Positions 17,389 through 32,000 of a stretch of DNA of 32,000 nt are shown here, in pieces (positions within the stretch are counted from its first letter, which is position 1; each line of letters begins with the position of its first letter). The translations under genes were made by a program, and so were the position numbers. The stretch is from positions 806,774 through 838,773 of the forward strand of contig NZ_CP022297.1 in NCBI RefSeq assembly GCF_017310015.1, given 5' to 3'. Below the pieces are notes generated by a model. The model was not told where the DNA came from. It searched no databases and worked only from the letters and a program-made list of their open reading frames with translations. This DNA comes from Marinobacterium iners (lineage in GTDB: Bacteria; Pseudomonadota; Gammaproteobacteria; Pseudomonadales; Balneatricaceae).

Positions 17389-17433
17389 ATGGGGTGCAAG
17401 GGGTAGCAGGTTCAAATCCTGCCGTCCCGACCA
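17389..17433 (+). other. 3' half of a tRNA-Pro(GGG) gene (anticodon loop to CCA): att-site remnant, not a complete tRNA
   Basis: The sequence atggggt gcaag gggta gcagg ttcaaat cctgc cgtcccg a cca parses as follows: anticodon loop (U33, GGG, G37), 3' anticodon stem, 5-nt variable loop, T arm (GCAGG/TTCAAAT/CCTGC), 3' acceptor strand, discriminator A, CCA. Upstream there is no D arm and no CGGGACG 5' acceptor strand. Confidence 0.65.
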
Positions 17434-17479
17434 TTTATTTGATTTATTTTCAATAGGTTAGCAGCATTCAGTGTGGGAT

Positions 17480-17512: not shown

Positions 17513-18757
17513 CTAACCGTTCACGACCTCCGAATTATTAGTTTCGTTCATGTTATCACTGTCATTGAGTGCATCCAGCATCTTGCTTTGGCTGGTTGTC
17601 GTGACTCCGTTTATCCACTTAGAGTAGCGGGTTAGTGTCATCTGAGTTGTCGAATGCCCCATTTGCTTACTGACCCACATTACGTTTGCGCCTGCAATCA
17701 ATGCCAGCGTGCAAAACGTGTGGCGCGTGTTGTAGGGAGGGCGGTGTCGAATCCCCAGTTTCCTCAAGGCCTTCTTGAAGAAAGTGCGTACTGCCTTGTT
17801 GGTCATGTAATGCTCACCGGTATTGGGGTTAATGAACACCTCCTTAGCCTGTAGTTCAGACCATCGCCTTTGGCGTTGAAGCGCCGCTTTGGCTCTGGCA
17901 TTAAGCTCCACATCTCGAACTTCATAGGTCTTTGTCGGCTTCAAACCACCTCCAGACCGATCCCGGGCACGTTGTACTCTGACTGTAGACTGTTGCCAGT
18001 CAACATCAGACCACATCAGGCCTGAAAGCTCTGACGATCTCAGGCCGGTCCAAAAAGCAAACTCAATCAAATTTGCTTCGCATGGGTGGGCATTTTTGTC
18101 GAGCCAACCGGTGATCATATTGAGCTCTTGTAGGGTGAATGGATCTGGTTCTGGTTTGATATGCTTCTGGTTCTTCAAATACTCCGATGGATCGCGTTCG
18201 ATCTGCATATCTTGTACTGCGAACTTGAAACATCCCCTCAGCGGAGTTAATGCGTTGTTCCGTGTTTTGGCTGAAGACCAGGGAATGCTGTTAACGACCT
18301 CGATTAAATCCGAAAACCGGATGTCGCGTATCAGCATACTCCCCAGTTCTGGCACCCAGTATTTTCGGAGGACCTTTTTGTACTCCATAATCGTAGAGTC
18401 TGCCAACATCAGACTACTCATATAGGTCTGTGCAACCTGTTCGAATGTGCTGTCAGTTTTTTTCTCCTTCTGTGCGTGTTTGCTATCAGGAAACCAGTTT
18501 GCAAATGTGAAGCTACCTAGCTCGATCTCCCTGAGAATCTCGGCACGCATCCGTGCTGCAGCTTTGATGTTTGCTTGTGTCGGCTTCATGCGGACCGTTT
18601 CCTCATACCGCTGCCCCTGGTACTGGAAGCGGACGAGGATAGATGTAGGCCTGATTTTCAGGCCTGTTTGCCGGATTGCACCCAATTTTCGTACTCCTCC
18701 AAATTGAAGTGCAGCCGGCCATCGGGCGACTTCACGTAGATTACCCCCTCTCGCCAT
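17513..18757 (-). CDS. int: Tyrosine recombinase / phage integrase (DUF3596-like arm-binding N-terminus)
   Basis: 414-aa ORF. The N-terminal domain reads IRPTSILVRFQYQGQRYEETV. Catalytic motifs are GLRSSELSGL, TRHTFCTLAL and GHSTTQMTLTRYSKW. The annotated start at 18757 would overlap the xis-like gene by 100 bp. The real start is probably nearer 18660 and may use a non-ATG codon. Confidence 0.85.
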   Translation of the reverse strand: MARGGNLREVARWPAALQFGGVRKLGAIRQTGLKIRPTSILVRFQYQGQRYEETVRMKPTQANIKAAARMRAEILREIELGSFTFANWFPDSKHAQKEKKTDSTFEQVAQTYMSSLMLADSTIMEYKKVLRKYWVPELGSMLIRDIRFSDLIEVVNSIPWSSAKTRNNALTPLRGCFKFAVQDMQIERDPSEYLKNQKHIKPEPDPFTLQELNMITGWLDKNAHPCEANLIEFAFWTGLRSSELSGLMWSDVDWQQSTVRVQRARDRSGGGLKPTKTYEVRDVELNARAKAALQRQRRWSELQAKEVFINPNTGEHYMTNKAVRTFFKKALRKLGIRHRPPYNTRHTFCTLALIAGANVMWVSKQMGHSTTQMTLTRYSKWINGVTTTSQSKMLDALNDSDNMNETNNSEVVNG

Positions 18758-19382: not shown

Positions 19383-21349
19383 AGAAATGTAAGTGCCTGA
19401 GATTGCCTCCGGATCCAATTTGGATTGAAGTGTCGAATCTTCGACACGGGCTTGAGACTGGTCAGGAACGAACGGCACCATGCTGGAGATTCGTGCCTGA
19501 AACGGCCCCCGGATCCAGTTTGGACTGAAGTGTCGATTCTTCGACACGGGCTTGGGACTGACGCATGAATGAACTGCACCGTGCTGAATGTCAGTGCCTG
19601 AGATTGCCCCCGGATCCAGTTTGGACTGAAGTGTCGAATCTTCGACACGGGCTTGAGACTGGTCAGGAACGAACGGCTCCATGCTGGAGATTCGTGCCTG
19701 AAACGGCCTACGGATCCAGTTGGGACTGAAGTGTCGATTCTTCTACACCAGCTTGGGACTGACGCATCAATGAACTGCACCATGCTGAATGTCAGTGCCT
19801 GAAACTGCCTCCGGAACCGGTTTGGGTTGAAGTGTCGATTCTTCGACACGGGCTTGAGACTGGTCAGGAACGAACGGCTCCATGCTGGAGATTCGTGCCT
19901 GAAACGGCCCCCGGATCCAGTTGGGACTGAAGTGTCGATTCTTCGACACGAGCTTGGGACTGGCGCAGGAATGAACTGCACCGTACCGAATGTCAGTGCC
20001 TGAAACTGCCCCCGGATCCAGTTTGGACTGAAGTGTCGATTCTTCGACACCAGCTTGGGACTGACGCATGAATGAACTGCACCATGCTGAATGTCAGTGC
20101 CTGAAACTGCCTCCGGAACCGGTTTGGGTTGAAGTGTCGATTCTTCGACACCAGCTTGGCACTGGCGCAGGAATAAACTGCACCGTACTGAATGTCAGTG
20201 CCTGAAACTGCCCCCGGATCCAGTTTGGACTGAAGTGTCGATTCTTCGACACCAGCTTGGGACTGGCGCAGGAATGAACTGCACCGTACCGAATGTACGT
20301 GCCTGAAACTGCCCCCGGATCCAGTTTGGACTGAAGTGTCGAATCTTCGACACGGGCTTGAGACTGGTCAGGAACGAACGGCACCATGCTGGAGGTTCGT
20401 GCCTGAGATCACCTTCGGCCCAGTGTGATTGAAGTGTCGAGTCTTCGACACCAGCTTGAGGCTGGCCAAGAATGAACTGCACCATGTTGAAGGTCAGTGC
20501 CTGAAACTGCCCCCGGATCCAGTTTGGGGTGAAGTGTCGAGTCTTCGACACGCGCTTGGCACTGGCGCAGGAATGAACGGCACCATGCTGGAAATTCGTG
20601 CCTGAGATCACCTCCGCTCAATGTGATTGAAGTGTCGAATCTTCGACACCAGCTTGGCACTGGCGCAGGAATGAACGGCACCATGCTGGAAATTCGTGCC
20701 TGAGATCACCTCCGGAACCAGTTTGGGGTGAAGTGTCGAGTCTTCGACACCAGCTTGGCACTGGCGCAGGAATGAACGGCACCATGCTGGAAATTCGTGC
20801 CTGAGATCACCTCCGCTCAATGTGATTGAAGTGTCGAATCTTCGACACCAGCTTGGGACTGACGCAGGAATGAACGGCACCGTACCGAATGTCAGTGCCT
20901 GAGATTGCCTCCGGCCCAGTGTGACTGAAGTGTCGAGTCTTCGACACCCGCTTGGCACTGGCACAGGAATGAACGGCACCATGTGAAGGTCAGTGCCTGA
21001 AATTGCCCCCGGCTCCAGTTTAGACTGAAGTGTCGATTCTTCGACATGAGCTTAGGACTGGCACAGGAATGAACGGCACCATGCTGGAGATTCGTGCCTG
21101 AGATCACTTCCGGAACCGGTTTGGGTTGAAGTGTCGAGTCTTCGACACCCGCTTGGCACTGGCGCAGGAATGAACGGCACCATGCTGGAGGTTCGTGCCT
21201 GAGATCAACTCCGGAACCGGTTTGGGTTGAAGTGTCGAGTATTCGACACAAGCTTGGCACTGGCGCAGGAATGAACGGCACCATGCTGGAGGTTCGTGCC
21301 TGAGATCGCCTCCGGCCCCAGTGTGATTGAAATGTCGAATTTTCGACAC
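19383..21349. repeat. Head-to-tail tandem array of 20 units of about 100 bp, each with a near-invariant palindrome GTGTCGA-NNNN-TCGACAC
   Basis: - Palindrome starts: 19430, 19530, 19631, 19731, 19832, 19932, 20033, 20134, 20235, 20336, 20434, 20534, 20632, 20733, 20831, 20930, 21030, 21131, 21232, 21332.
- Spacing is 98-101 bp.
- The inter-palindrome DNA is homologous between units and falls into at least three interleaved subtypes. Confidence 0.95.
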
Positions 21350-22079: not shown

Positions 22080-23798
22080 ATGGACTACCAGTTATCCCAG
22101 AGCGGGCAAACAGCTCATGTTGAAGTCACGCGGCTTCCAACAGGTGATCCTCTCCCCGCACTGATTGAATTAGAGAAAGAGCTGGCAGATCAAAATCTGA
22201 GACGGATTGAGCTGTTTTTCAGTGAAGGAGCATCCCCTCCGGTAGATCGCCTGACTCATGCCGGCTATCAGGAATCTGGCTCAGAACGCTTCTTCAAGTC
22301 GGTACACTATCAACCTTCTGTTCGTTTCTCGATCACTGAAAAGTGCAATTACGCATGCTTCTTCTGCCATGAAGAAGGCATGGAGATGGGCAAAGCACGT
22401 GCTGCTGCCCAACAGGAACAGCTATTTGACGTTCTGCGGCAATTCCATGAGTTGAATTATCAGGATTTTACCTTTACCGGCGGAGAGCCTTTGCTCAACC
22501 CGAATAAGATTGTTGCCTGTCTCGATTACATGGAATCAATAGGCTACCTGCCTGACATCACGTTTGTTTCCAATGGGCTGGCTCTGACCGAAAAACTTTT
22601 GGCCCGCCTGCAAGCCTATCCTGGCAAAATGCGCTTTAACATTTCGATGCATAGCCTTGAAGAGCATGCCTACAACCAGATTGTGCAGGATATACAAAAG
22701 CCGAACGCGCCACTTCGTCACAACGAGCACCGCCGCGTAAAAGAAAATTTGCTGAAGCTGCAAGCGGCAGGTATCCCTTTCAAGCTTAACTTTGTTCTAT
22801 TAAAAGGTCTCAATACGTCAGATGAAGCCATCCAGGCTGTGTTGGATTACGCGTTACAGCTTGGCGCAACGCGGATCAAGTTTCTGGAGCTGCTGTTAAC
22901 TAAAGAGCTGAATCATCTGTATGGATACTTCTACCGGCTGGATGCACTGCGCGAGCGTCTAAGTGACCAGCTGACTCTTACAGAGCGGAGTTTCAGGCGT
23001 GATGTGTATCGCTATGCAGACACACAGTTGGAGCTTGAATTCCAGCATTGTACCTGTGCCAGAGGCTGCAACACCTGCACCGTAAATCGTGACGCTAACT
23101 TTACTGCAGAGCTGAAATACTTTCCCTGTTTCCTGCATTCGGATGAAGACTTTGATTTGAAAACTGTGGCGCTTGAAGAGGCGATCACGCAAGGCGATCA
23201 AAAAATTCAACGCATGGCACAGTACTATGGTGATGACAGTCCCATCATTGTTCGTAATCACTATCTGACTCAAGAAGAGCAGTTTTATTACTATCTGGCC
23301 TCATCCAGCGCTATAGAGCAGCTCAAAAGAAAGCTTTCACTGGAGGAAAGGCTGGAGCGCAGACGGGACTTCAACGAGATCTACCTGACGTTGGTGGGTC
23401 AGGCAGGCGACGATTTTTCCACTGTGTACAAGCTAAGCCGCAATAGTTACGACCAGCACGCACTGGAAATCGAGCAGGCTTACAGTTTTGATCCGCTCAA
23501 GCCAGGATTGGTCACGACGCATTTTTCTGGCGAAAGCCAGAAGGTCATTGACCCGGACTTGTACCTGAAACAGCTGGCAGAGCAGGGGTATGAGCAGCGT
23601 TTAAACTTGAACTGGTCCATCTTTTTTTACCGTTTGCGGCGGTCCAGTTTTGTGCGGCAATCAGAGTTATCCATCAGCCATAACCTTGAGAGTGGGCTGT
23701 TCTTTGTAAGATCTGATACTCCCTTGGATGATGAGCAATTGAAGCCAATGACAGAACCCCTAGCTTCGTATATAAGCACCAGAATGCGGCTGGCATGA
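22080..23798 (+). CDS. MoaA-like radical SAM enzyme with an N-terminal ~75-aa leader domain and a ~175-aa C-terminal extension (possibly CYTH-like), first large gene of the type III-B operon
   Basis: - Size: 572 aa.
- Radical SAM cluster: CX3CX2C motif CNYACFFC (C89-C96, nt 22344-22367).
- Collinearity with MoaA by eye: FSITEKCNYACFFC, FTFTGGEPLL, ITFVSNG, RFNISMHSLE, FKLNFVLLKGLN and IKFLELL.
- Second Cys cluster: CNTCTVNRDANFTAELKYFPC, at the position of the MoaA auxiliary cluster. Confidence 0.85.
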   Translation: MDYQLSQSGQTAHVEVTRLPTGDPLPALIELEKELADQNLRRIELFFSEGASPPVDRLTHAGYQESGSERFFKSVHYQPSVRFSITEKCNYACFFCHEEGMEMGKARAAAQQEQLFDVLRQFHELNYQDFTFTGGEPLLNPNKIVACLDYMESIGYLPDITFVSNGLALTEKLLARLQAYPGKMRFNISMHSLEEHAYNQIVQDIQKPNAPLRHNEHRRVKENLLKLQAAGIPFKLNFVLLKGLNTSDEAIQAVLDYALQLGATRIKFLELLLTKELNHLYGYFYRLDALRERLSDQLTLTERSFRRDVYRYADTQLELEFQHCTCARGCNTCTVNRDANFTAELKYFPCFLHSDEDFDLKTVALEEAITQGDQKIQRMAQYYGDDSPIIVRNHYLTQEEQFYYYLASSSAIEQLKRKLSLEERLERRRDFNEIYLTLVGQAGDDFSTVYKLSRNSYDQHALEIEQAYSFDPLKPGLVTTHFSGESQKVIDPDLYLKQLAEQGYEQRLNLNWSIFFYRLRRSSFVRQSELSISHNLESGLFFVRSDTPLDDEQLKPMTEPLASYISTRMRLA

Positions 23799-23868: not shown

Positions 23869-25191
23869 ATGAAGGGGCAGGTTATGCCAACGACAATGAA
23901 CGTCGCTAATTCAAATGGACCGGTCGAAAGTGACCATTGGCTGATCTGTGTCGCGGGATCATCTCCGGCCGTTGTGACCGAAACACTCTATTGCTTGAAA
24001 GACCGTGAAAATTTCCCGAATAAGGTCGTGATATTCACAACCCTACATGGTAAGGGCCAGATCGAAAAACAAGGCTTGAAACAGCAAGTTTCGAATCTGT
24101 GTCGGGACTATAACCTGCCGGTTATCAGTGGCGCTAAGATTGAGGTGCGTATTGTAACGAATTCAGCGGGCGTTGAGCTCGAGGATATACGGACTTCTGA
24201 GCATCAAGAAGCAATGGCTGATTTTTTGACACGACAGATTCGTGAAATAACCCACCCACGAGGCAAAGGCAAAAAGCGCCCTGATTCAATACATGCATCC
24301 TTAGCCGGTGGGCGAAAGAGTATGTCGTTTTATATGGGCAATATCTTCTCATTCTTCGCGAGTGCGAATGATGAGCTCAGTCATGTTCTGGTGGAACCGG
24401 GCTATGAGGTCCCAGGTTTTTGGTATCCGAAACCAGAGCCTTTTAATATCACAGTAAAAAGCTATGCAACCGGAGATGTCACCGGTGTGCTGGATGCGAG
24501 CAAAGCAGAAATTGAGTTGTCCACAATTCCGTTTGTGCAGCTCAGCAATGCATTAGTGAGTACAGATTCGGATGCTTTTCATAATCTGAGCTATCAACAG
24601 TTGGTGGATATTTATCAGGTTACCCTAGATCCAAGTCGGATCAAACTGACATTTAATATTAAAAATCTATCCGTTGACCTCAATGGCCGTGTATTGCCAA
24701 TCCGGAATTTTGATAGTTATCTGTTGTATTACCTAGTCGCACGAGATAGCCATGAAAACTCATTCTCATATCAAAAAGAAGTTTTTGGTAATAAAGAGCA
24801 TGCCTTGACGCAGGCACTATGGCAGCTAATGGGTGAAGTTACGGGTATAAGGGATTTCGAAAGCCTGATAGGTAACAGCTGGGAGGCGCCTGCAGAGTAT
24901 GTCGAAAAGTATATTGCTAGGCTAAAACAAGAAAATCCAGACCTTATTCCTCTTCATCAGAGCCCCAAGCTCTTTAGTTCCCTCTCCAAAGACGGAGTCA
25001 TCAGCGAGAAATCGATTGAGCGGATGATGACCGATATCCGCAAGGCATTAGAGCAGACTGAGGGCCGTCCAACCGTGAATGTATGTAAAGTGGCCACATT
25101 GAAAGAGGATGGCGAGGAACGCAAAGCAGCCAAGGGAGTAGATGCGTACTTGGGGCTTTTATTGCCTGCCCATCAAATTCAACTTATTTAG
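23869..25191 (+). CDS. CARF-domain protein of the Cas_NE0113 type (TIGR02584/PF09623-like from memory) with an uncharacterised ~230-aa C-terminal region
   Basis: 440 aa. The family signature is present: WLICVAGSSPAVVTETLYCL and HASLAGGRKSMSFYMG. An alternative start is the Met at 23884, which has a better RBS (AAGGGG). Confidence 0.8.
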   Translation: MKGQVMPTTMNVANSNGPVESDHWLICVAGSSPAVVTETLYCLKDRENFPNKVVIFTTLHGKGQIEKQGLKQQVSNLCRDYNLPVISGAKIEVRIVTNSAGVELEDIRTSEHQEAMADFLTRQIREITHPRGKGKKRPDSIHASLAGGRKSMSFYMGNIFSFFASANDELSHVLVEPGYEVPGFWYPKPEPFNITVKSYATGDVTGVLDASKAEIELSTIPFVQLSNALVSTDSDAFHNLSYQQLVDIYQVTLDPSRIKLTFNIKNLSVDLNGRVLPIRNFDSYLLYYLVARDSHENSFSYQKEVFGNKEHALTQALWQLMGEVTGIRDFESLIGNSWEAPAEYVEKYIARLKQENPDLIPLHQSPKLFSSLSKDGVISEKSIERMMTDIRKALEQTEGRPTVNVCKVATLKEDGEERKAAKGVDAYLGLLLPAHQIQLI

Positions 25192-25291: not shown

Positions 25292-26560
25292 ATGACGCAG
25301 TTGCAAACATGGATTGACCTGCTGGATCAAACCAATGAAGAACCCAACCTGAAAGCCGAGTTTCAGGTTGTAACGCCGATGTTTATCGGTGACGGTGAAC
25401 AGAAGGCCGACAGTATACGGCCTCCAGCGATCAAGGGCGCGCTCCGCTTCTGGTGGCGGGCGCTGAATTGGAGCCGTTGTCTGCAGCAGGCAGGCAATGA
25501 AGCCAGTGCGCTTAAACAGTTGCATGATGAAGAGGCAGTACTCTTCGGGCTTGCAGCAAAACAGGATGCGCAGGGTAACCAGACTGGAGGACAAGGGGTT
25601 TTCAGCTTGAAGCTAACCCAGAAGTTGGAGCTTTTAAAAGACTGGTCCCCGGGGGCAGGGATCCAGTACCTGCTTGGCCAAGGATTGTGGAATTACAAAG
25701 AGAAGCTGTTGAGAAATGCCATCGCTGATGGTAGCTGCTTTACGATTGAATTGCGTTGGCATCCCAATCGTCTTGATATTGCCGCTTCGAAACTTGTTCT
25801 GAATGTTTCATCGATAAAAGAAACAATAGACGATGCACTGATGGCCTTTGGTCTGCTGAGTGGACTGGGCAGTCGGGCTCGAAAAGGGCTGGGAGCAGTT
25901 TCGATAACAGCGTTATCTGGCAGTCGCTGGTCTGTCCCGACGTCAATGAAATCTTACAAGGAAACCTTGCAAAAGCTTTTGCAACCCAGGTTATCCACCC
26001 GAGTACTCCCTCCATTCACTGCTGTGAGTGCCAACACCCGACTAGACTTCTCCTCTACCGGCAAGGCTGCGAATGCCCTGTTGGAAGAGATGGGCGGGCA
26101 GATGCAGATGTACCGTAGCTGGGGTCGAGAGGGAAAAGTAAACGGTAAATCTGCTGAACAAAATTTCAGAGGAGATCACGATGAAGCTTTGTTCGCGACT
26201 CAAGGCGAGCAACCAAGGAAGCAACCTGAGCGCGCGGTGTTCGGTTTGCCGCATAATTATTTTTTCAGCAGTACAAAGGGTAAAGTTGATATACATGTGA
26301 AAAAGGATGCAGCCGGTGAGCGTCGAGCCAGCCCTCTTTTTCTCCATACCCACTTATTGCCTGATGGTAGTTTTGTAGCCGTACAGCTGCTAATGCCAGC
26401 AGTCTTTTTGCCCGGCAATAATCCCATGCTTGAGTATAAGAGCAAACGTAGTTTTACACTGCCGGCTTCTGATGCTGATTGGAGTGTTATTACCCGATAT
26501 ATGGATCGCTTTAAAAACAAAGAGACTGTAATAACGACTGATCTGCAGGGAGCACAATAA
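25292..26560 (+). CDS. cmr1: Type III-B RAMP protein Cmr1
   Basis: 422 aa. FQVVTPMFIGDGEQKADSIRPPAIKGALRFWWRAL is the Cmr1 N-terminal signature. A G-rich loop GLGSRARKGLGAVSI is present, and a second RAMP-like half contains VFGLPHNY. Confidence 0.85.
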   Translation: MTQLQTWIDLLDQTNEEPNLKAEFQVVTPMFIGDGEQKADSIRPPAIKGALRFWWRALNWSRCLQQAGNEASALKQLHDEEAVLFGLAAKQDAQGNQTGGQGVFSLKLTQKLELLKDWSPGAGIQYLLGQGLWNYKEKLLRNAIADGSCFTIELRWHPNRLDIAASKLVLNVSSIKETIDDALMAFGLLSGLGSRARKGLGAVSITALSGSRWSVPTSMKSYKETLQKLLQPRLSTRVLPPFTAVSANTRLDFSSTGKAANALLEEMGGQMQMYRSWGREGKVNGKSAEQNFRGDHDEALFATQGEQPRKQPERAVFGLPHNYFFSSTKGKVDIHVKKDAAGERRASPLFLHTHLLPDGSFVAVQLLMPAVFLPGNNPMLEYKSKRSFTLPASDADWSVITRYMDRFKNKETVITTDLQGAQ

Positions 26561-26562
26561 CC

Positions 26563-28584
26563 GTGAATGAACTGAAAGCCTATTTCCACCTTACCCTGGG
26601 CCCGGTTCAGGGTTTTGTTGCACAGGCACGTCGTACGCGGGACTTCTGGGCGGGGTCTTTCCTGCTGTCCTGGCTCTCCAGCGTGGCGATGGCATCGGCT
26701 CAAAAGCAGGGTGGTGTGATCAATTTTCCGATTCCTGATGACCACTTCATGGCTGCGTTGAAAGGTGAAGCTAAAAACAATCCGCCCCAGCAGGGCAGCG
26801 TGCCCAACCGGTTTAAAACCCTTGAGGTCCAAGTCGATCAGCACTTTGACCCTCAACGGGTTGTCACTGATATGCAAGCGGCTTGGAGGGCACTTTGTGA
26901 GCACATCTGGCAGCGTGATATGGTGCCGACGCTTGGCAGCGATTCAAAGCAGGAGCAGATAACCAAACAGATCTGGCATCGTCAGTTGCACCACTACTGG
27001 GAGATCAACTGGTGTCTGGCTGATGAGGCTCATGTTAGCAATATGTTGGATCGCAGAAAAAACTGGCGCTCACATACATTACCGCCTGAGCCTGGGGTTA
27101 AGTGTATGATGATGGAAGGGTTTCAGGAGCTTTCCGGGCTTGAATACCCGGATCAGAAAAAGCTCGACAATTTCTGGCAGCGGATACGTCGTTCAGTTAA
27201 GTCTGGAACGAGCGACCTGCGCCCGGGTGAGTGTCTGAGTGCCCTTGGTTTTGTGAAACGCCGATTTGTGCGCCACTTTAAGGACTTTCAGGGTACCTTG
27301 CCATCCGGCCAAGCCATTTCGGGCTGGCCGCTGCCAGCTCAGGTGCCATCGGTGGCGCATATTGCCGCCGCTCCCTGGTATGCAGCGGTGCTTGAAAACG
27401 CTCAGTTAGACAAAGATGTCGATCAAGCACTGAACCGTTTTTATGATGTGGCCGAGCAGTTGGTCGATTTCAGTGAAACCGCCAACCCCATTCAGCGTGT
27501 GGACTCAGCCATAAAGAGGACGGGCTATCACAAGGAGTGGGCAGGTCTTGATGGCAATGTATTTCACGTCAGTCAATTAGAGAACAGCAAACTTTTTGAT
27601 GACGATCCTGGCACTCAACGTAAGGCAAAGTCGATGCTGAGCGCGCTGAATGAGCTGCGCCAGAGCACAGGTCTGCCAGAGGCAAGTAGCTTCTATGCAG
27701 TGCTCATTATGGATGGCGACAGTCTGGGCAGTCAGATGAGTGACCCTGACAAGCAGGAGGCTATCTCCAAGGGGCTTAACAACTTCACGACCGGTGTACC
27801 ATCCATTGTGCAGGATCAGGATGGCTTTCTGGTCTATGCCGGTGGTGATGATGTGTTGGCGCTGGTGTGCCTCGATAAAGCAGTAGAGCTGGCCTTGCAG
27901 TTGCGTAATTTCTACGCAGAGTGTTTTGCACAACAGAACAAGAATCTGAGCACTGACAAGCAGATCACTACCAGCCTGTCGGGGGCGATTGAGTTCTGCC
28001 ATATGAAGACGCCGCTGACTTTTGTACTCGGTGACTCTCATAGCTTGCTGGATGATATCGCCAAGGATAGAACCGGACGTGATGCGCTGGCGGTTCGCGT
28101 CTGGAAACCCGGGGGCCTCCACCTTGAATGGTCACAACCTTGGCAATATTTGATAGATCAGGCGCAGCAGACCGGTAATCTGCTGTCTGATGTAGTCAAA
28201 ATGTTTTCCGAGCGTGAGCAGAACAGCCCGTTCACCAATAAGTTCATTTTCAAGGCTGAGGAGATGTTGCAGCGTTTGCCGCAGCAGCTGTTGAAGGCAG
28301 AGCAGGATGAGGAGCTGCTGGCAAAAATGCTGCAGGCCGAACTGGTTCACTCAGGGCTTGATCTCAACCAGAATAGCCGTAATAAACAGCAGATTTTGGA
28401 TGAGCTGTTGCAGCCTCTGATCGCACTAGCTACCCCTCATGTGCGTAAAACGGATGATCAGGGGCGCTTTAAAGAGCTGAAACCACAACACCGTTTTGAC
28501 GCAGATGCACTCAAGCTGGTGCGTTTCTTGACCCAGGAGTCAATTTGTCAGCCTATGCAAGAAAACAAGGAGGTGCACGCATGA
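26563..28584 (+). CDS. cas10: Cas10/Cmr2, HD-less form with an intact GGDD cyclase motif
   Basis: 673 aa with a GTG start 3 bp after the cmr1 stop. The N-terminus LTLGPVQGFVAQARRTRDFWAGSFLLSWL corresponds to the post-HD region of Cmr2 proteins. The palm 1 metal site is IMDGDSLG (27709-27720). GGDD lies at residues 427-430 (27841-27852). Confidence 0.9.
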   Translation: MNELKAYFHLTLGPVQGFVAQARRTRDFWAGSFLLSWLSSVAMASAQKQGGVINFPIPDDHFMAALKGEAKNNPPQQGSVPNRFKTLEVQVDQHFDPQRVVTDMQAAWRALCEHIWQRDMVPTLGSDSKQEQITKQIWHRQLHHYWEINWCLADEAHVSNMLDRRKNWRSHTLPPEPGVKCMMMEGFQELSGLEYPDQKKLDNFWQRIRRSVKSGTSDLRPGECLSALGFVKRRFVRHFKDFQGTLPSGQAISGWPLPAQVPSVAHIAAAPWYAAVLENAQLDKDVDQALNRFYDVAEQLVDFSETANPIQRVDSAIKRTGYHKEWAGLDGNVFHVSQLENSKLFDDDPGTQRKAKSMLSALNELRQSTGLPEASSFYAVLIMDGDSLGSQMSDPDKQEAISKGLNNFTTGVPSIVQDQDGFLVYAGGDDVLALVCLDKAVELALQLRNFYAECFAQQNKNLSTDKQITTSLSGAIEFCHMKTPLTFVLGDSHSLLDDIAKDRTGRDALAVRVWKPGGLHLEWSQPWQYLIDQAQQTGNLLSDVVKMFSEREQNSPFTNKFIFKAEEMLQRLPQQLLKAEQDEELLAKMLQAELVHSGLDLNQNSRNKQQILDELLQPLIALATPHVRKTDDQGRFKELKPQHRFDADALKLVRFLTQESICQPMQENKEVHA

Positions 28585-29759
28585 CACTGCGTTGGTCATT
28601 GCAACCTGTTGATAGCTGGTTCTTCCGTGAGGCCCGCTCCCATGATGCGGTTGGTGTAGGGCAGTTGAATTCGATATTTCCGCCCCCTGCCACCACCCTT
28701 GCCGGTGCTATTCGCACCTCTATGGGCGATCATCTTGGCGTTGATTGGCATGAGTTTAATATCAACAATGGCAAACACCATGAGCTTTTGGGGGAAGGCA
28801 ACAACCTGGGCTTACTGAATATTGCAGCGATACAGGTCGTTGTTGATGGGGAGCCTGTCTATCCGGCCCCTCAGGATCTTCTCAAAGGCGCAGATCAAAA
28901 TGATCCGCTGTACCGACTTAAAATTGGTGCTCCGGTGCGCTGTGACCTCGGTTATGTCGCCATGCCTGAGATGGATGCCCCAGCTGGCAGTAAACCACTC
29001 GAAAACCACTGGATTACGGCCAAGGGGTTGCAGCAGTGGCTGACGGGTGGACTGCCGGATAAATCTGAGCTAATCGCGCAAAGTGAGTTGATTACCAGTG
29101 AGGCGCGTCTCGGTATCGGCCGAATCAATAAACTAGGGGTTGTTGATAAAGACAATGGGCTGCTTTACCAGACCCGACATTTACGTCCGACCGGTGAAAA
29201 ACAGTTCAGCATTGATGTGTACCTGCAGGGGATCAGTGACGATCTGGCCCAGCAGTTACCAGAGTCAACCAGCCTGCGTTTGGGTGGGGAAGGGCGCGAA
29301 GCCGCTGTCGCCATTACAAGTGCCGATTTGCCTGCAGTCAAGCTGCCGGATATGCCAACCTGTAAAAAGGCCCGTGGAGTTGTGCTGTATCTGACAAGTC
29401 CCGCCAACCTCAATAGCGACGCGGCGAATGCTGCCTGGTGTCTGCCTGGTTTTACCCCGGTTAAAAATGAGCGCGGTGAGATAACACACTGGATCGGTGA
29501 ACTGGCCGGTGTTGCACTGAAACTGGTTAGCTGTGTGCTGCCAAGGCCGGAACGTTTGGGTGGCTGGGATCAAAAACTGCGTAAACCCAAACCCCTGATC
29601 TCGCTGGCTGCCGCTGGCAGTCTCTACTACTGCGAGTTGCAGCACCCTGACCTGCAGCCACTGACGCCCGAGTTGCTGCTAACGCTGCAGCAACAACCGA
29701 TCGGCACTGATACCAGTTTGGGCTATGGCCGTCTGTTGGCCGGCCTCTGGTTGAACTGA
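28581..29759 (+). CDS. cmr3: Type III-B Cmr3
   Basis: I prefer the ATG at 28581, which forms an ATGA overlap with the cas10 stop and has an AAGGAGG RBS at 28567-28573. MTLRWSLQPVDSWFFREARSHD...FPPPATTLAGAIRTSMG is the Cmr3 signature. Confidence 0.85.
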   Translation: MTLRWSLQPVDSWFFREARSHDAVGVGQLNSIFPPPATTLAGAIRTSMGDHLGVDWHEFNINNGKHHELLGEGNNLGLLNIAAIQVVVDGEPVYPAPQDLLKGADQNDPLYRLKIGAPVRCDLGYVAMPEMDAPAGSKPLENHWITAKGLQQWLTGGLPDKSELIAQSELITSEARLGIGRINKLGVVDKDNGLLYQTRHLRPTGEKQFSIDVYLQGISDDLAQQLPESTSLRLGGEGREAAVAITSADLPAVKLPDMPTCKKARGVVLYLTSPANLNSDAANAAWCLPGFTPVKNERGEITHWIGELAGVALKLVSCVLPRPERLGGWDQKLRKPKPLISLAAAGSLYYCELQHPDLQPLTPELLLTLQQQPIGTDTSLGYGRLLAGLWLN

Positions 29760-29804
29760 TCAACAGCTACCCAGTATTACACAGTCTTACATAAGGATAT
29801 AAAC

Positions 29805-30716
29805 ATGACCGCGATTGCCCATCAGATTGTTGGTTTGACCTGCGAAACCCCCATGCATGCCGGTGGCGGCAGCAAGGAAGAGGTGATCGACCTGCCGATT
29901 CAGAAAGAAGCACATACTAACTGGCCCTGCGTTTATGGCTCATCGATGAAGGGGGCGCTGCGTGCACGCGCAGAAACGCAGGTGAAGATGGATGCTTCAT
30001 TGATCGCACAAGCGTTCGGCCCTGATACCCTCAACGCCAGCGAACACGCCGGTGCATTGCTGGTCAGTGATGCCCGTTTGCTGTTGTTGCCAGTGCGTTC
30101 GTTGACCAGCCATTTCAAACTGGTGACGTGCCCGGCCTTACTGGCCCGCCTGCTGGCTGATCTGGCACGCACGGGCAACGCACAAATGTTTAAGGTACCT
30201 GCTGTGGCGGCCGATCGGGCGATCAGTCCTGATTGCCAGGGGAGAGATGAGATCTACCTGGAAGAATTTAGCTTCGCGCTATCTGACTGGGCTGATGCAG
30301 ATGGTTGGATTGAACTGTTGCTGAATCTGATTGCCGCCGTGCCAGGTGTGAGCCGTGGCGATCAGAAAGCCGAGTTACAAAAACAGCTGGTAGTGATCGA
30401 CAACGACAGCTTTCGACACCTAAGTCAGGCCGCCCTGCCGGTGCTGCCGCATATCGCCATCAATAGTGAGACCAAAACCGTGCGTAACGGCGCACTTTGG
30501 TATGAAGAAAATCTGCCGGCTGAAACCCTGCTGTACACGGTGCTTGGCTGCCAGCCTTCGCGCAAAAAAGGTGCTAACACCAGCGCCGCTGAGCTCTTGA
30601 AAGCGGTAACAGGACAGCTGTTCGGTCAGCCCTACATTCAGATTGGCGGTAACGAAACCACCGGCATGGGCTGGTGCCGTGTTGCACTGCCACAGCTGGC
30701 ACAAGGAGGTGAGTAA
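29805..30716 (+). CDS. cmr4: Type III-B Cmr4 (Cas7-like backbone, target-RNA cleaving subunit)
   Basis: 303 aa. LTCETPMHAGGGSKEEVIDLPIQKEAHTNWPCVYGSSMKGALRA is the Cmr4 signature. The conserved Asp (D29, nt 29889-29891) is present. Confidence 0.9.
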   Translation: MTAIAHQIVGLTCETPMHAGGGSKEEVIDLPIQKEAHTNWPCVYGSSMKGALRARAETQVKMDASLIAQAFGPDTLNASEHAGALLVSDARLLLLPVRSLTSHFKLVTCPALLARLLADLARTGNAQMFKVPAVAADRAISPDCQGRDEIYLEEFSFALSDWADADGWIELLLNLIAAVPGVSRGDQKAELQKQLVVIDNDSFRHLSQAALPVLPHIAINSETKTVRNGALWYEENLPAETLLYTVLGCQPSRKKGANTSAAELLKAVTGQLFGQPYIQIGGNETTGMGWCRVALPQLAQGGE

Positions 30717-31210
30717 TGGCCAAGTATAAGAAAAATATTAAACAGCCTGCACCTGTTGTTGTATCGACTGCGAGTATTTCATCGGATCAAAGGCCTTTAC
30801 CCCAACTGCTTGAGCAGCACCGAGCCGAATTTGCGCTCAAACAGATTCAGGCCGCTGTAAATCGTCCGGAAGAGGGCAAATACAAACACAGTCAGGTGAA
30901 AAGTTTTTGTCGTCGTTTTCCCGGTATGGTGCAGAGCAACGGCTTTGGACAGGCAGTCGCGTTTTTCTACTCAAAGCGTAATGACTACCCTGCGTATGGC
31001 GTGATCTATCAACTGGTTGAAGACTGGCTGTGCCAGGACAGCAAGGTTTACGCTGCCTTTGCTGAAGCCCAGGCACCACGGCTGTTGAAAGCGATTACCG
31101 AAAGCGACCAGCACGCCTATCGCTTGGCCACCGCTGAAACGCAGGCATTGATGATCTGGGTGAAGAAGTTTGCCGAGGGATTGATCCTGAAAGATGAGGA
31201 GGCCTACTGA
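30716..31210 (+). CDS. cmr5: Type III-B small subunit Cmr5 (Cas11)
   Basis: 164 aa. The start overlaps the cmr4 TAA by 1 nt and has an AAGGAGG RBS at 30703-30709. FCRRFPGMVQSNGFGQAVAFFYSK matches the Cmr5 helical-core pattern. Confidence 0.8.
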   Translation: MAKYKKNIKQPAPVVVSTASISSDQRPLPQLLEQHRAEFALKQIQAAVNRPEEGKYKHSQVKSFCRRFPGMVQSNGFGQAVAFFYSKRNDYPAYGVIYQLVEDWLCQDSKVYAAFAEAQAPRLLKAITESDQHAYRLATAETQALMIWVKKFAEGLILKDEEAY

Positions 31211-32000
31211 TGCTACCCCTCTATAATTGGCAGACGCATGCGATTCCTTCGGGTGAGGATGCTCAGCGCCAGATTCAGCATAGGGGCTGTCATCCCGGCC
31301 TCTGGTTTGAGCGGTTTTTTAATCAGTATGATGATGAATTCGCGATTAGGGATACGGCAAAAAGCAGTTTCATTAAGGGATTAGCTGGTGGCTGTGGCAA
31401 TGCTCAGGCCTTGCAGCAAGCGTACCTGCGGCAGTCCGCGCTGGTGAAGGCGTGCAGTGGGGTAACAATTACCCTGCAGGCAGACTGGCATTTTGCCACC
31501 GGGCTGGGTAACCCGCATCCGGTGGAGAATGGATTTCTACTTCACCCAACACTGGCCGCGCCTTATTTGCCTGGCAGCAGTGTCAAGGGACTAGTACGCA
31601 GCTGGCTGGAGCAGAATCTCGGTGACAAGGCAGGCATGCTGTTTCACTGTCTGTTTGGCAGCGAAGATAAGGACCCCACTAAATGTCAGCAGGATTTTCA
31701 GGCTGGTGATGTGATTTTTTTTGATGCACTACCGGTACTGCCGGCCACGCTGCTCTTAGATACTATGACCCCGCACATGGGAGGTTGGTACGAAAAGGGC
31801 GGTACAGAGGATGTATCCATGGCTGCCAACCAGCCTGCCGACTGGCATGATCCCGTACCTGTGCCCTTTTTGGCGGCCAAAGAGCTGGTGCTGATGTTCA
31901 GTTTTGCACCTAGGAAAAGGGATGCTGATTCTGACCAGTTGATGCGACTTGTCGGCAAGGCGTTGCAGGATGCTTTGTTCCATGCTGGAGCCGGAGCCAA
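31210..32000 (+). CDS. cmr6: Type III-B RAMP protein Cmr6 (3'-truncated by the window edge)
   Basis: Hand-translated frame 1 from the ATG at 31210, which overlaps the cmr5 TGA. The sequence reads MLPLYNWQTH...HFATGLGNPHPVENGFLLHPTLAAPYLPGSSVKGLVRSWLEQ...DVIFFDALP...TPHMGGWY...HAGAGA. There is no stop before 32000, and the gene is absent from the ORF track for that reason. Confidence 0.85.
   Translation, partial: MLPLYNWQTHAIPSGEDAQRQIQHRGCHPGLWFERFFNQYDDEFAIRDTAKSSFIKGLAGGCGNAQALQQAYLRQSALVKACSGVTITLQADWHFATGLGNPHPVENGFLLHPTLAAPYLPGSSVKGLVRSWLEQNLGDKAGMLFHCLFGSEDKDPTKCQQDFQAGDVIFFDALPVLPATLLLDTMTPHMGGWYEKGGTEDVSMAANQPADWHDPVPVPFLAAKELVLMFSFAPRKRDADSDQLMRLVGKALQDALFHAGAGA

Follow-up and report, generated by a model that had tools for sequence, protein, structure and literature searches.

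The cmr1-6 operon of Marinobacterium iners as the probable effector part of a conventional type III-B CRISPR system extending over about 41 kb

In this work we have examined a 32,000-nucleotide stretch of the Marinobacterium iners genome (contig NZ_CP022297.1), hereafter the window, which ends in an operon encoding the effector complex of a type III-B (Cmr) CRISPR system. A reading made from the window alone, which we call the original prediction, described this operon as a complete cmr set with a Cas10 devoid of its HD nuclease domain, carried by an integrative element and accompanied by no CRISPR array, no cas6 and no adaptation genes. Where, then, would the guide RNAs of such a complex come from, and which proteins would respond once it has found a target? 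The window corresponds to positions 806774-838773 of a complete 4.05-Mb genome with a GC content of 55%, and everything beyond the window end is given here in window-equivalent coordinates (genome coordinate minus 806773). With a probability of roughly 90%, we conclude that the operon in the window is just the effector portion of a conventional type III-B system, which is complete and extends over about 41 kb. The absence of the array, cas6 and adaptation genes is an artefact of the window edge.

Profile searches identified six co-directional genes, the last of which runs past the window end at 32000 by 367 nt:

25292-26560, plus strand, cmr1 (TIGR01894, 35 bits against a cut-off of 28.65)
26563-28584, plus strand, cas10/cmr2, 673 aa, GTG start (TIGR02577, 121 bits against a cut-off of 79)
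28581-29759, plus strand, cmr3, its ATG overlapping the cas10 stop codon as ATGA (Pfam Cas_Cmr3, 192 bits against 21)
29805-30716, plus strand, cmr4, the Cas7 backbone (226 bits against 87)
30716-31210, plus strand, cmr5 (59 bits against 27.9)
31210-32367, plus strand, cmr6, 385 aa (100 bits against 51, with the full 385-aa protein scored)

The Cmr3 call was rescued by the Pfam family, the protein reaching 81.5 on the TIGR model, under its cut-off of 100.4. The searches confirm the complete and tightly coupled set that had been described, so that the Cmr-specific subunits Cmr1, Cmr3, Cmr4, Cmr5 and Cmr6 stand in a single operon with Cas10. The overlaps and motif positions reported earlier proved exact when checked on the sequence (ATGA at 28581, TAATG at 30714 and TGATG at 31208); only the gap between cmr1 and cas10 had been misjudged, being 2 bp rather than 3 bp. 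The catalytic residues that characterize type III-B are present, namely the GGDD motif and the DxD metal ligands of Cas10 and the catalytic aspartate of Cmr4, the latter being the D29 which had been singled out as conserved and which aligns with the catalytic D26 of Pyrococcus furiosus Cmr4.

The large subunit, the sole Cas10 of the genome according to a genome search, carries the Palm/cyclase domains of its family (Cmr2_N, 9.7e-17; palm2 PF22335, 1.5e-31; Cmr2 matches in the PDB down to 3e-21). Its GGDD motif occupies residues 427-430 (nucleotides 27841-27852) and is preceded by MDGD at residues 383-386. The DGD within the latter (residues 384-386) is indeed retained; it had been assigned to the first palm, and it falls inside the Palm2 model PF22335, which covers residues 377-510. 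Residue 9 of the protein falls on residue 29 of Cmr2dHD, the P. furiosus construct that was crystallised, and residues 392-522, the Palm2 region, align with 653-777 of full-length P. furiosus Cmr2, which means that the protein begins exactly where the HD domain ends. Profile searches found no HD family match in Cas10, and the N-terminal HD domain of a DNase-competent Cas10 is thus lacking. Could such a domain be encoded from an alternative upstream start? The frame is closed seven codons before the GTG, as had been suspected, and the four homologues that we compared begin at the same point and are equally short. These come from two genomes of the same family (G017 and G034), Thiorhodospira sibirica and an Endozoicomonas metagenome-assembled genome; across the five proteins, which are 42-55% identical, GGDD and MDGDxLG are invariant. 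The picture of a Cas10 without an HD domain and with an intact GGDD is therefore borne out by the alignments, the motif check and the closed upstream frame.

Between 17.4 and 32 kb of the window we also found no array, cas6, cas1 or cas2, and in this respect the original prediction was right. All of these are found in cis, no more than about 31 kb further downstream:

37145-38062, minus strand, cas6, 305 aa (sub-threshold Cas6 profile match, confirmed by fold)
38301-39452, plus strand, array 1, 17 repeat copies
50338-51569, plus strand, array 2, 18 copies of the same 37-nt repeat
57146-59790, plus strand, a Toprim gene followed by cas2-cas1-cas2, adjoining array 3
60545-62870, plus strand, array 3, 12 copies of the same repeat and 3 more beyond an IS5 insertion

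The genes and arrays appeared to be absent because they lie 5-30 kb past the window end. The cas6 gene was missed by a genome search with PF10040 and was found through a fold search. The family alignment of the protein contains the glycine-rich loop GGGKTSFGLG, an AlphaFold model built with 12 homologues reached a pLDDT (predicted local distance difference test) of 86, and the best Foldseek matches of this model were all Cas6 structures (E 1e-9, probability 1.0). A cas6 gene and an array just downstream of cmr6 had been named beforehand as the finding that would overturn the idea of an array-less locus, and in essence this is what is there: cas6 lies 4.8 kb after cmr6, beyond a four-gene cassette, and array 1 lies 5.9 kb after cmr6, starting about 240 bp past cas6. 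A cognate array and a Cas6 thus complete the type III-B gene set, outside the window. Two cas2 genes around one cas1 are unusual.

The three arrays (arrays 2 and 3 being 18 and 28 kb after cmr6) share the 37-nt repeat GTCCGAGAGCTACCCCGACACCGGAGGGGATTAAGAC, present in 50 copies in all, and hold 45 spacers of 31-35 nt. Each has a leader of its own, AT-rich, about 150 nt long and conserved among the three; the terminal repeats are degenerate. From the leaders and the degenerate ends it follows that the arrays should be transcribed on the plus strand, with the predicted 8-nt 5' handle AUUAAGAC; scans for promoters and terminators gave nothing above chance. The genome has a second, unrelated CRISPR locus at genome positions 3435329-3440078, with its own cas1, an array of about 3.2 kb and a different repeat of 32 nt, GTTTCGATCCACGCACCCGCGTGGGGTGCGAC, which looks like a type I-C repeat.

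Does this repeat belong with this Cas10? We looked at related cmr loci in the two genomes of the same family and in a species collection. In G017, a member of another genus, the locus is compact and reads NE0113, Toprim, cas2-cas1-cas2, array, cas6, cmr1-6, csx1, with cas6 immediately before cmr1 and just one array, placed between cas2 and cas6; a VWA-kinase-PP2C triad, a TPR protein, a Can2-like protein and a second NE0113 protein are encoded near the cmr genes. The G017 counterparts of cas6, cmr1-6, csx1, VWA, kinase, PP2C, TPR, Can2-like, NE0113, Toprim and cas2-cas1-cas2 are 38-66% identical to those described here, and its repeat, GTCCGAGACCTGCCCCGAAACCGGAGGGGATTAAGAC, is nearly identical to ours. 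In the three other genera represented by G017, T. sibirica and the Endozoicomonas genome, the arrays adjacent to cmr all end in GGGATTAAGAC, with the same 8-nt handle ATTAAGAC; in their repeats the CCC(C)/GGG(G) stem is kept and the loop varies. Repeat ends shared beside related cmr loci indicate that the repeat family travels with this clade of Cas10.

What would the complex signal to? Using PADLOC and NCBIfam models we identified four proteins with CARF domains, as expected of the branch of type III systems in which cyclic oligoadenylate is sensed by CARF proteins. They are listed here with the remaining gene just upstream of the operon:

22080-23798, plus strand, MoaA/viperin-like radical S-adenosylmethionine (SAM) protein, 572 aa (Radical_SAM 4.3e-20; pVip 1.6e-20)
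23869-25191, plus strand, NE0113/CARF5-family protein, 440 aa, directly upstream of cmr1 (TIGR02584 1e-42; CARF5--CARF 6.7e-68)
39555-40838, plus strand, Can2/Card1-like protein, CARF4 with PD-(D/E)xK (8.5e-29), motif D...EIK
51629-52915, minus strand, csx1, CARF2-HEPN (2e-133), motif RNALAH
55449-56789, minus strand, a second NE0113/CARF5 protein

With no HD domain and an intact cyclase site, the output should pass through nucleotide signalling together with RNA cleavage by Cmr4, which is what had been proposed. The part of the proposal that does not hold is that the signal is received only by the unusual genes upstream, since most of the likely receivers are canonical effectors, Csx1 and the Can2-like nuclease, encoded further downstream. 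The effector types present suggest that the signal is probably cyclic tetra-adenylate (cA4), and effectors activated by cA4 commonly co-occur (PMC11229360). The two NE0113/CARF5 proteins are probably regulators or signal-degrading factors. In the mechanism that we propose, Cas6 would cut the transcripts of the three arrays into CRISPR RNAs (crRNAs) with the 5' handle predicted above, and Cmr1-6 would take up these guides and bind to complementary transcripts of an invader. The bound RNA would be cleaved by Cmr4 through D29, while the Palm/GGDD site of Cas10 would make cyclic oligoadenylate, probably cA4, which would activate the HEPN RNase Csx1 and the PD-(D/E)xK nuclease of Can2/Card1 type. 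No DNA cleavage by Cas10 would be involved, and the local cas2-cas1-cas2 module would supply new spacers.

The spacers give some idea of what the system may have met. Those of all three arrays match a single uncultivated virus contig of 56 kb (IMGVR_UViG_3300042258_000141, from IMG/VR), with four matches at 34/34, 31/32, 28/34 and 27/33 positions, and nothing else is common to this contig and the host genome. The perfect match belongs to the leader-proximal spacer of array 2, which argues for recent acquisition. The protospacer flanks do not resemble the handle. At all four protospacers the credible genes lie on one strand, the plus-strand open reading frames there looking spurious, and three of the crRNAs, those of the two best matches among them, would be antisense to the mRNA expected there. 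The strands are consistent with transcript targeting and the pattern is not statistically significant; as proof of RNA targeting the strand bias is weakened by the fourth protospacer, which is sense. None of the 45 spacers matches the host genome, the longest chance match being 17 nt. Array 1 spacers found no match among the cultured-phage records of INPHARED, and exact-pattern spacer scans of IMG/VR gave nothing in two of three. Spacers 7 and 11 of array 1 (genome positions 845530-845562 and 845808-845840) differ at 9 of 33 positions, 8 of these falling on every third base, as if one coding region had been sampled from two related invaders; searching IMG/VR with a degenerate pattern for these two spacers returned no match.

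How did the system come to be here? The original prediction saw it as mobile cargo of an element targeting tRNA-Pro. An intact tRNA-Pro(GGG) gene lies at genome positions 805132-805208, 1.6 kb before the window start, and two features inside the window relate to it:

17389-17437, plus strand, 49-bp copy of the 3' part of tRNA-Pro(GGG), an att repeat (98% identity over 49 bp to genome positions 805164-805212)
17513-18757, minus strand, tyrosine integrase gene int2 (Phage_integrase 1.7e-21; Arm-DNA-bind_2)

ARAGORN reports no tRNA in the window because the former is just a partial copy. It sits between two integrases, 76 bp from int2, so that an integrase does stand beside an att site derived from a tRNA. 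Between int2 and the radical SAM gene, at 19386-21349, a unit of about 101 bp is repeated in tandem 19.6 times. The only att pair (genome positions 805164-805212 and 824162-824210) brackets a neighbouring 19-kb element that does not include the CRISPR genes. Neither a short-query BLAST search nor local alignment found a further att copy between 824 and 901 kb of the genome, with a top local score of 20 at the right junction, below the mean of 21.3 for random windows, and no other integrases were found between 824.9 and 901 kb. Direct att repeats on both sides of the CRISPR genes are therefore lacking.

Comparison with relatives tells more about the history of the block. Close to tRNA-Pro, three congeners (G001, G002 and G005) carry a homologue of genome positions 901266-902633, at 66-277 bp in G005 and G002, which implies that about 96 kb here are specific to the strain. 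Another relative, G006, has a counterpart of the int2 region, at 75% identity, directly after tRNA-Pro, and its island also shares segments with 875.8-883.2 kb of our genome. Cas10 was not found in the genomes of 15 congeneric species, and the stretch at 877-897 kb has only patchy matches in congeners. The GC content is 0.47-0.55 over the CRISPR super-locus and 0.57-0.58 in the flanks from about 887 kb. The block is thus absent at the same site in relatives and atypical in base composition. Four other congeners have partial copies of the tRNA-Pro(GGG) 3' end 9 to 38 kb from the intact tRNA, and such copies in several congeners suggest that tRNA-Pro is a recurrent hot spot for island insertion in the genus. 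Horizontal acquisition at this hot spot is well supported by these comparisons; present-day mobility of a discrete element carrying cmr is not supported. What remains of the earlier view is an acquired block beside an integrase and a tRNA fragment, with no att site closing a unit around the CRISPR genes.

How well does a complete, conventional type III-B system account for all this? Several observations weigh against it. The hairpin of the repeat has only 4 bp and is no more stable than that of shuffled sequence, array 3 is interrupted by an IS5, and the order of the modules is scrambled relative to G017, with cas6 pointing away from cmr and four genes lying between them. That the signal is cA4 is a guess from the effector types. 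The 28/34 protospacer has the sense orientation relative to a minus-strand gene, and the resulting 3:1 split between strands is not significant. The rearranged order and the IS5 would also suit a decaying, non-functional remnant within an old, immobilised island, as would the lack of an attR, by which the island looks fixed, and the array 1 spacers without a match to cultured phages. We consider such decay very improbable, since all the cas and effector reading frames that were examined are full length with their catalytic motifs, the three leaders are conserved, and the spacer of array 2 with the perfect match to the virus contig argues that acquisition was recent.

Could the Cas10 instead make a signal other than cyclic oligoadenylate, such as SAM-AMP, with the SAM-binding radical SAM enzyme as part of the pathway? 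The protein is short and without an HD domain, like the members of the SAM-AMP clade, its PDB matches include other short type III-B Cas10s, and an enzyme that uses SAM is encoded two genes upstream. Nevertheless we find this slightly less probable still, because the locus encodes four proteins of the kind that serve as receptors for cyclic oligoadenylate, and no CorA, NrN/DEDD or SAM-lyase, the proteins that accompany SAM-AMP systems (PMC11229360), was seen among the annotated neighbours. The least probable reading is an orphan, array-less Cmr module with borrowed or non-canonical crRNAs, for which the products of the radical SAM and CARF genes upstream would be the only receivers of the signal. 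It accords with the window from 17.4 kb onwards and with these genes being the nearest co-oriented neighbours, but it is already refuted by the downstream sequence, with its cas6, three cognate arrays, adaptation genes and canonical effectors. In three other genera this Cas10 clade is accompanied by the same repeat family, and the flanks examined at four related loci contain no homologue of the radical SAM gene.

A complete, conventional type III-B system would have well-described counterparts. Among 1113 type III loci analysed by Hoikkala et al. (2024; PMC11229360), 39% have an HD domain and 92% a cyclase, so that type III systems most often have a Cas10 with a cyclase and no HD domain. The domain is commonly absent from Cas10s of about 600 aa in Proteobacteria and Bacteroidetes (PMC8682760), and Grüschow et al. 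(2021; PMC8682760) characterised a type III-B system of this kind, VmeCmr of Vibrio metoecus, which is located on a prophage. It resembles the present locus in its Cmr1-6 subunits and in a Cas10 that has kept the cyclase and has no HD domain, and its host is likewise a gammaproteobacterium, in which a mobile element carries it; in its Cmr4 the catalytic aspartate is D26 (PMC8682760). Immunity by VmeCmr acts purely through cyclic oligoadenylate and a trans-acting nuclease (PMC8682760), and by analogy the same scheme may apply here. VmeCmr has a Cas6f, a repeat of I-F type, no adaptation genes and a single non-CARF effector, NucC, activated by cyclic tri-adenylate (cA3) (PMC8682760), whereas the locus described here has a canonical Cas6, its own cas2-cas1-cas2, three arrays and four CARF proteins. 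The Cmr complex of P. furiosus (PDB 3w2v, 4w8y, 4w8w and 3x1l) has the same six subunits and an 8-nt crRNA handle, and its Cas10 D1 and Palm regions, GGDD, Cmr4 fold and catalytic aspartate align with ours; its Cmr2, on the other hand, starts with an HD domain of about 210 aa for which our protein has no counterpart, and identity is low outside Palm2. The III-B system of Bacteroides fragilis (CorA/NrN, SAM-AMP), as the work of Chi et al. (2023) is summarised in PMC11229360, shares the short Cas10 without an HD domain, the active Palm and the Cmr1-6 operon. Unlike in that summary, we saw no CorA or SAM-AMP-degrading enzyme here; the effectors carry CARF domains instead, pointing to cyclic oligoadenylate.

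As it was first stated, the finding therefore matters little, since Cas10s with a cyclase and no HD domain are common and a mobile III-B system with such a Cas10 has already been characterised. Type III loci can span tens of kilobases, and a claim that one has no array needs its flanks checked first. Perhaps the locus is of more use as a tractable model: it is a well-delimited, apparently intact III-B system with several effectors, a predicted handle (AUUAAGAC) and a candidate target virus. The one lead left at the locus is formed by the conserved non-CARF neighbours and the radical SAM gene. Between cmr6 and array 1 lies a convergent minus-strand block of five genes with cas6 as the last, and further genes are scattered beyond it:

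32829-33836, minus strand, 335-aa protein
33842-34978, minus strand, PP2C phosphatase
35011-36114, minus strand, kinase-like protein (language-model atlas score of 0.99 and otherwise only weak hidden Markov model matches)
36077-36898, minus strand, VWA protein
40895-43582, plus strand, TPR protein, 895 aa (weak C-terminal TPR matches only)
57146-58201, plus strand, Toprim protein, 351 aa, with a 4-bp overlap with the cas2 start

The first four form a cassette (32829-36898) co-oriented with cas6, of which the VWA, kinase-like and PP2C genes recur near the G017 cmr genes at 48-63% identity. The three resemble the TerY-P triad, a module that accompanies defence systems and in a variant form defends alone (PMC11090510). 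The TPR protein is paired with the Can2-like nuclease both here and in G017 (56% identity), and in T. sibirica a homologue of 30% identity adjoins cmr1; a protein-atlas search with it gave no lead. The order Toprim-cas2-cas1-cas2 recurs in G017, where the Toprim protein is 40% identical. With 6 clusters among 5.8 billion proteins the Toprim family is a small one, and it may be an adaptation accessory. The radical SAM gene is present only in this genome among those compared, G017 having neither this gene nor an int2-type integrase within the 40 kb examined. Could the VWA-kinase-PP2C, TPR, Toprim and radical SAM genes be new accessory modules of type III systems, serving in cyclic oligoadenylate signalling or in spacer acquisition? 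We raise this tentatively, as a rather unlikely idea, because the VWA triad, TPR and Toprim genes have kept their association with this Cas10 clade in different genera even though the locus is rearranged. Three dynamin-like/MMR_HSR1 GTPases (277, 598 and 548 aa) and a 185-aa reading frame, at 43770-48730 on the plus strand between arrays 1 and 2, may form a separate defence cassette.

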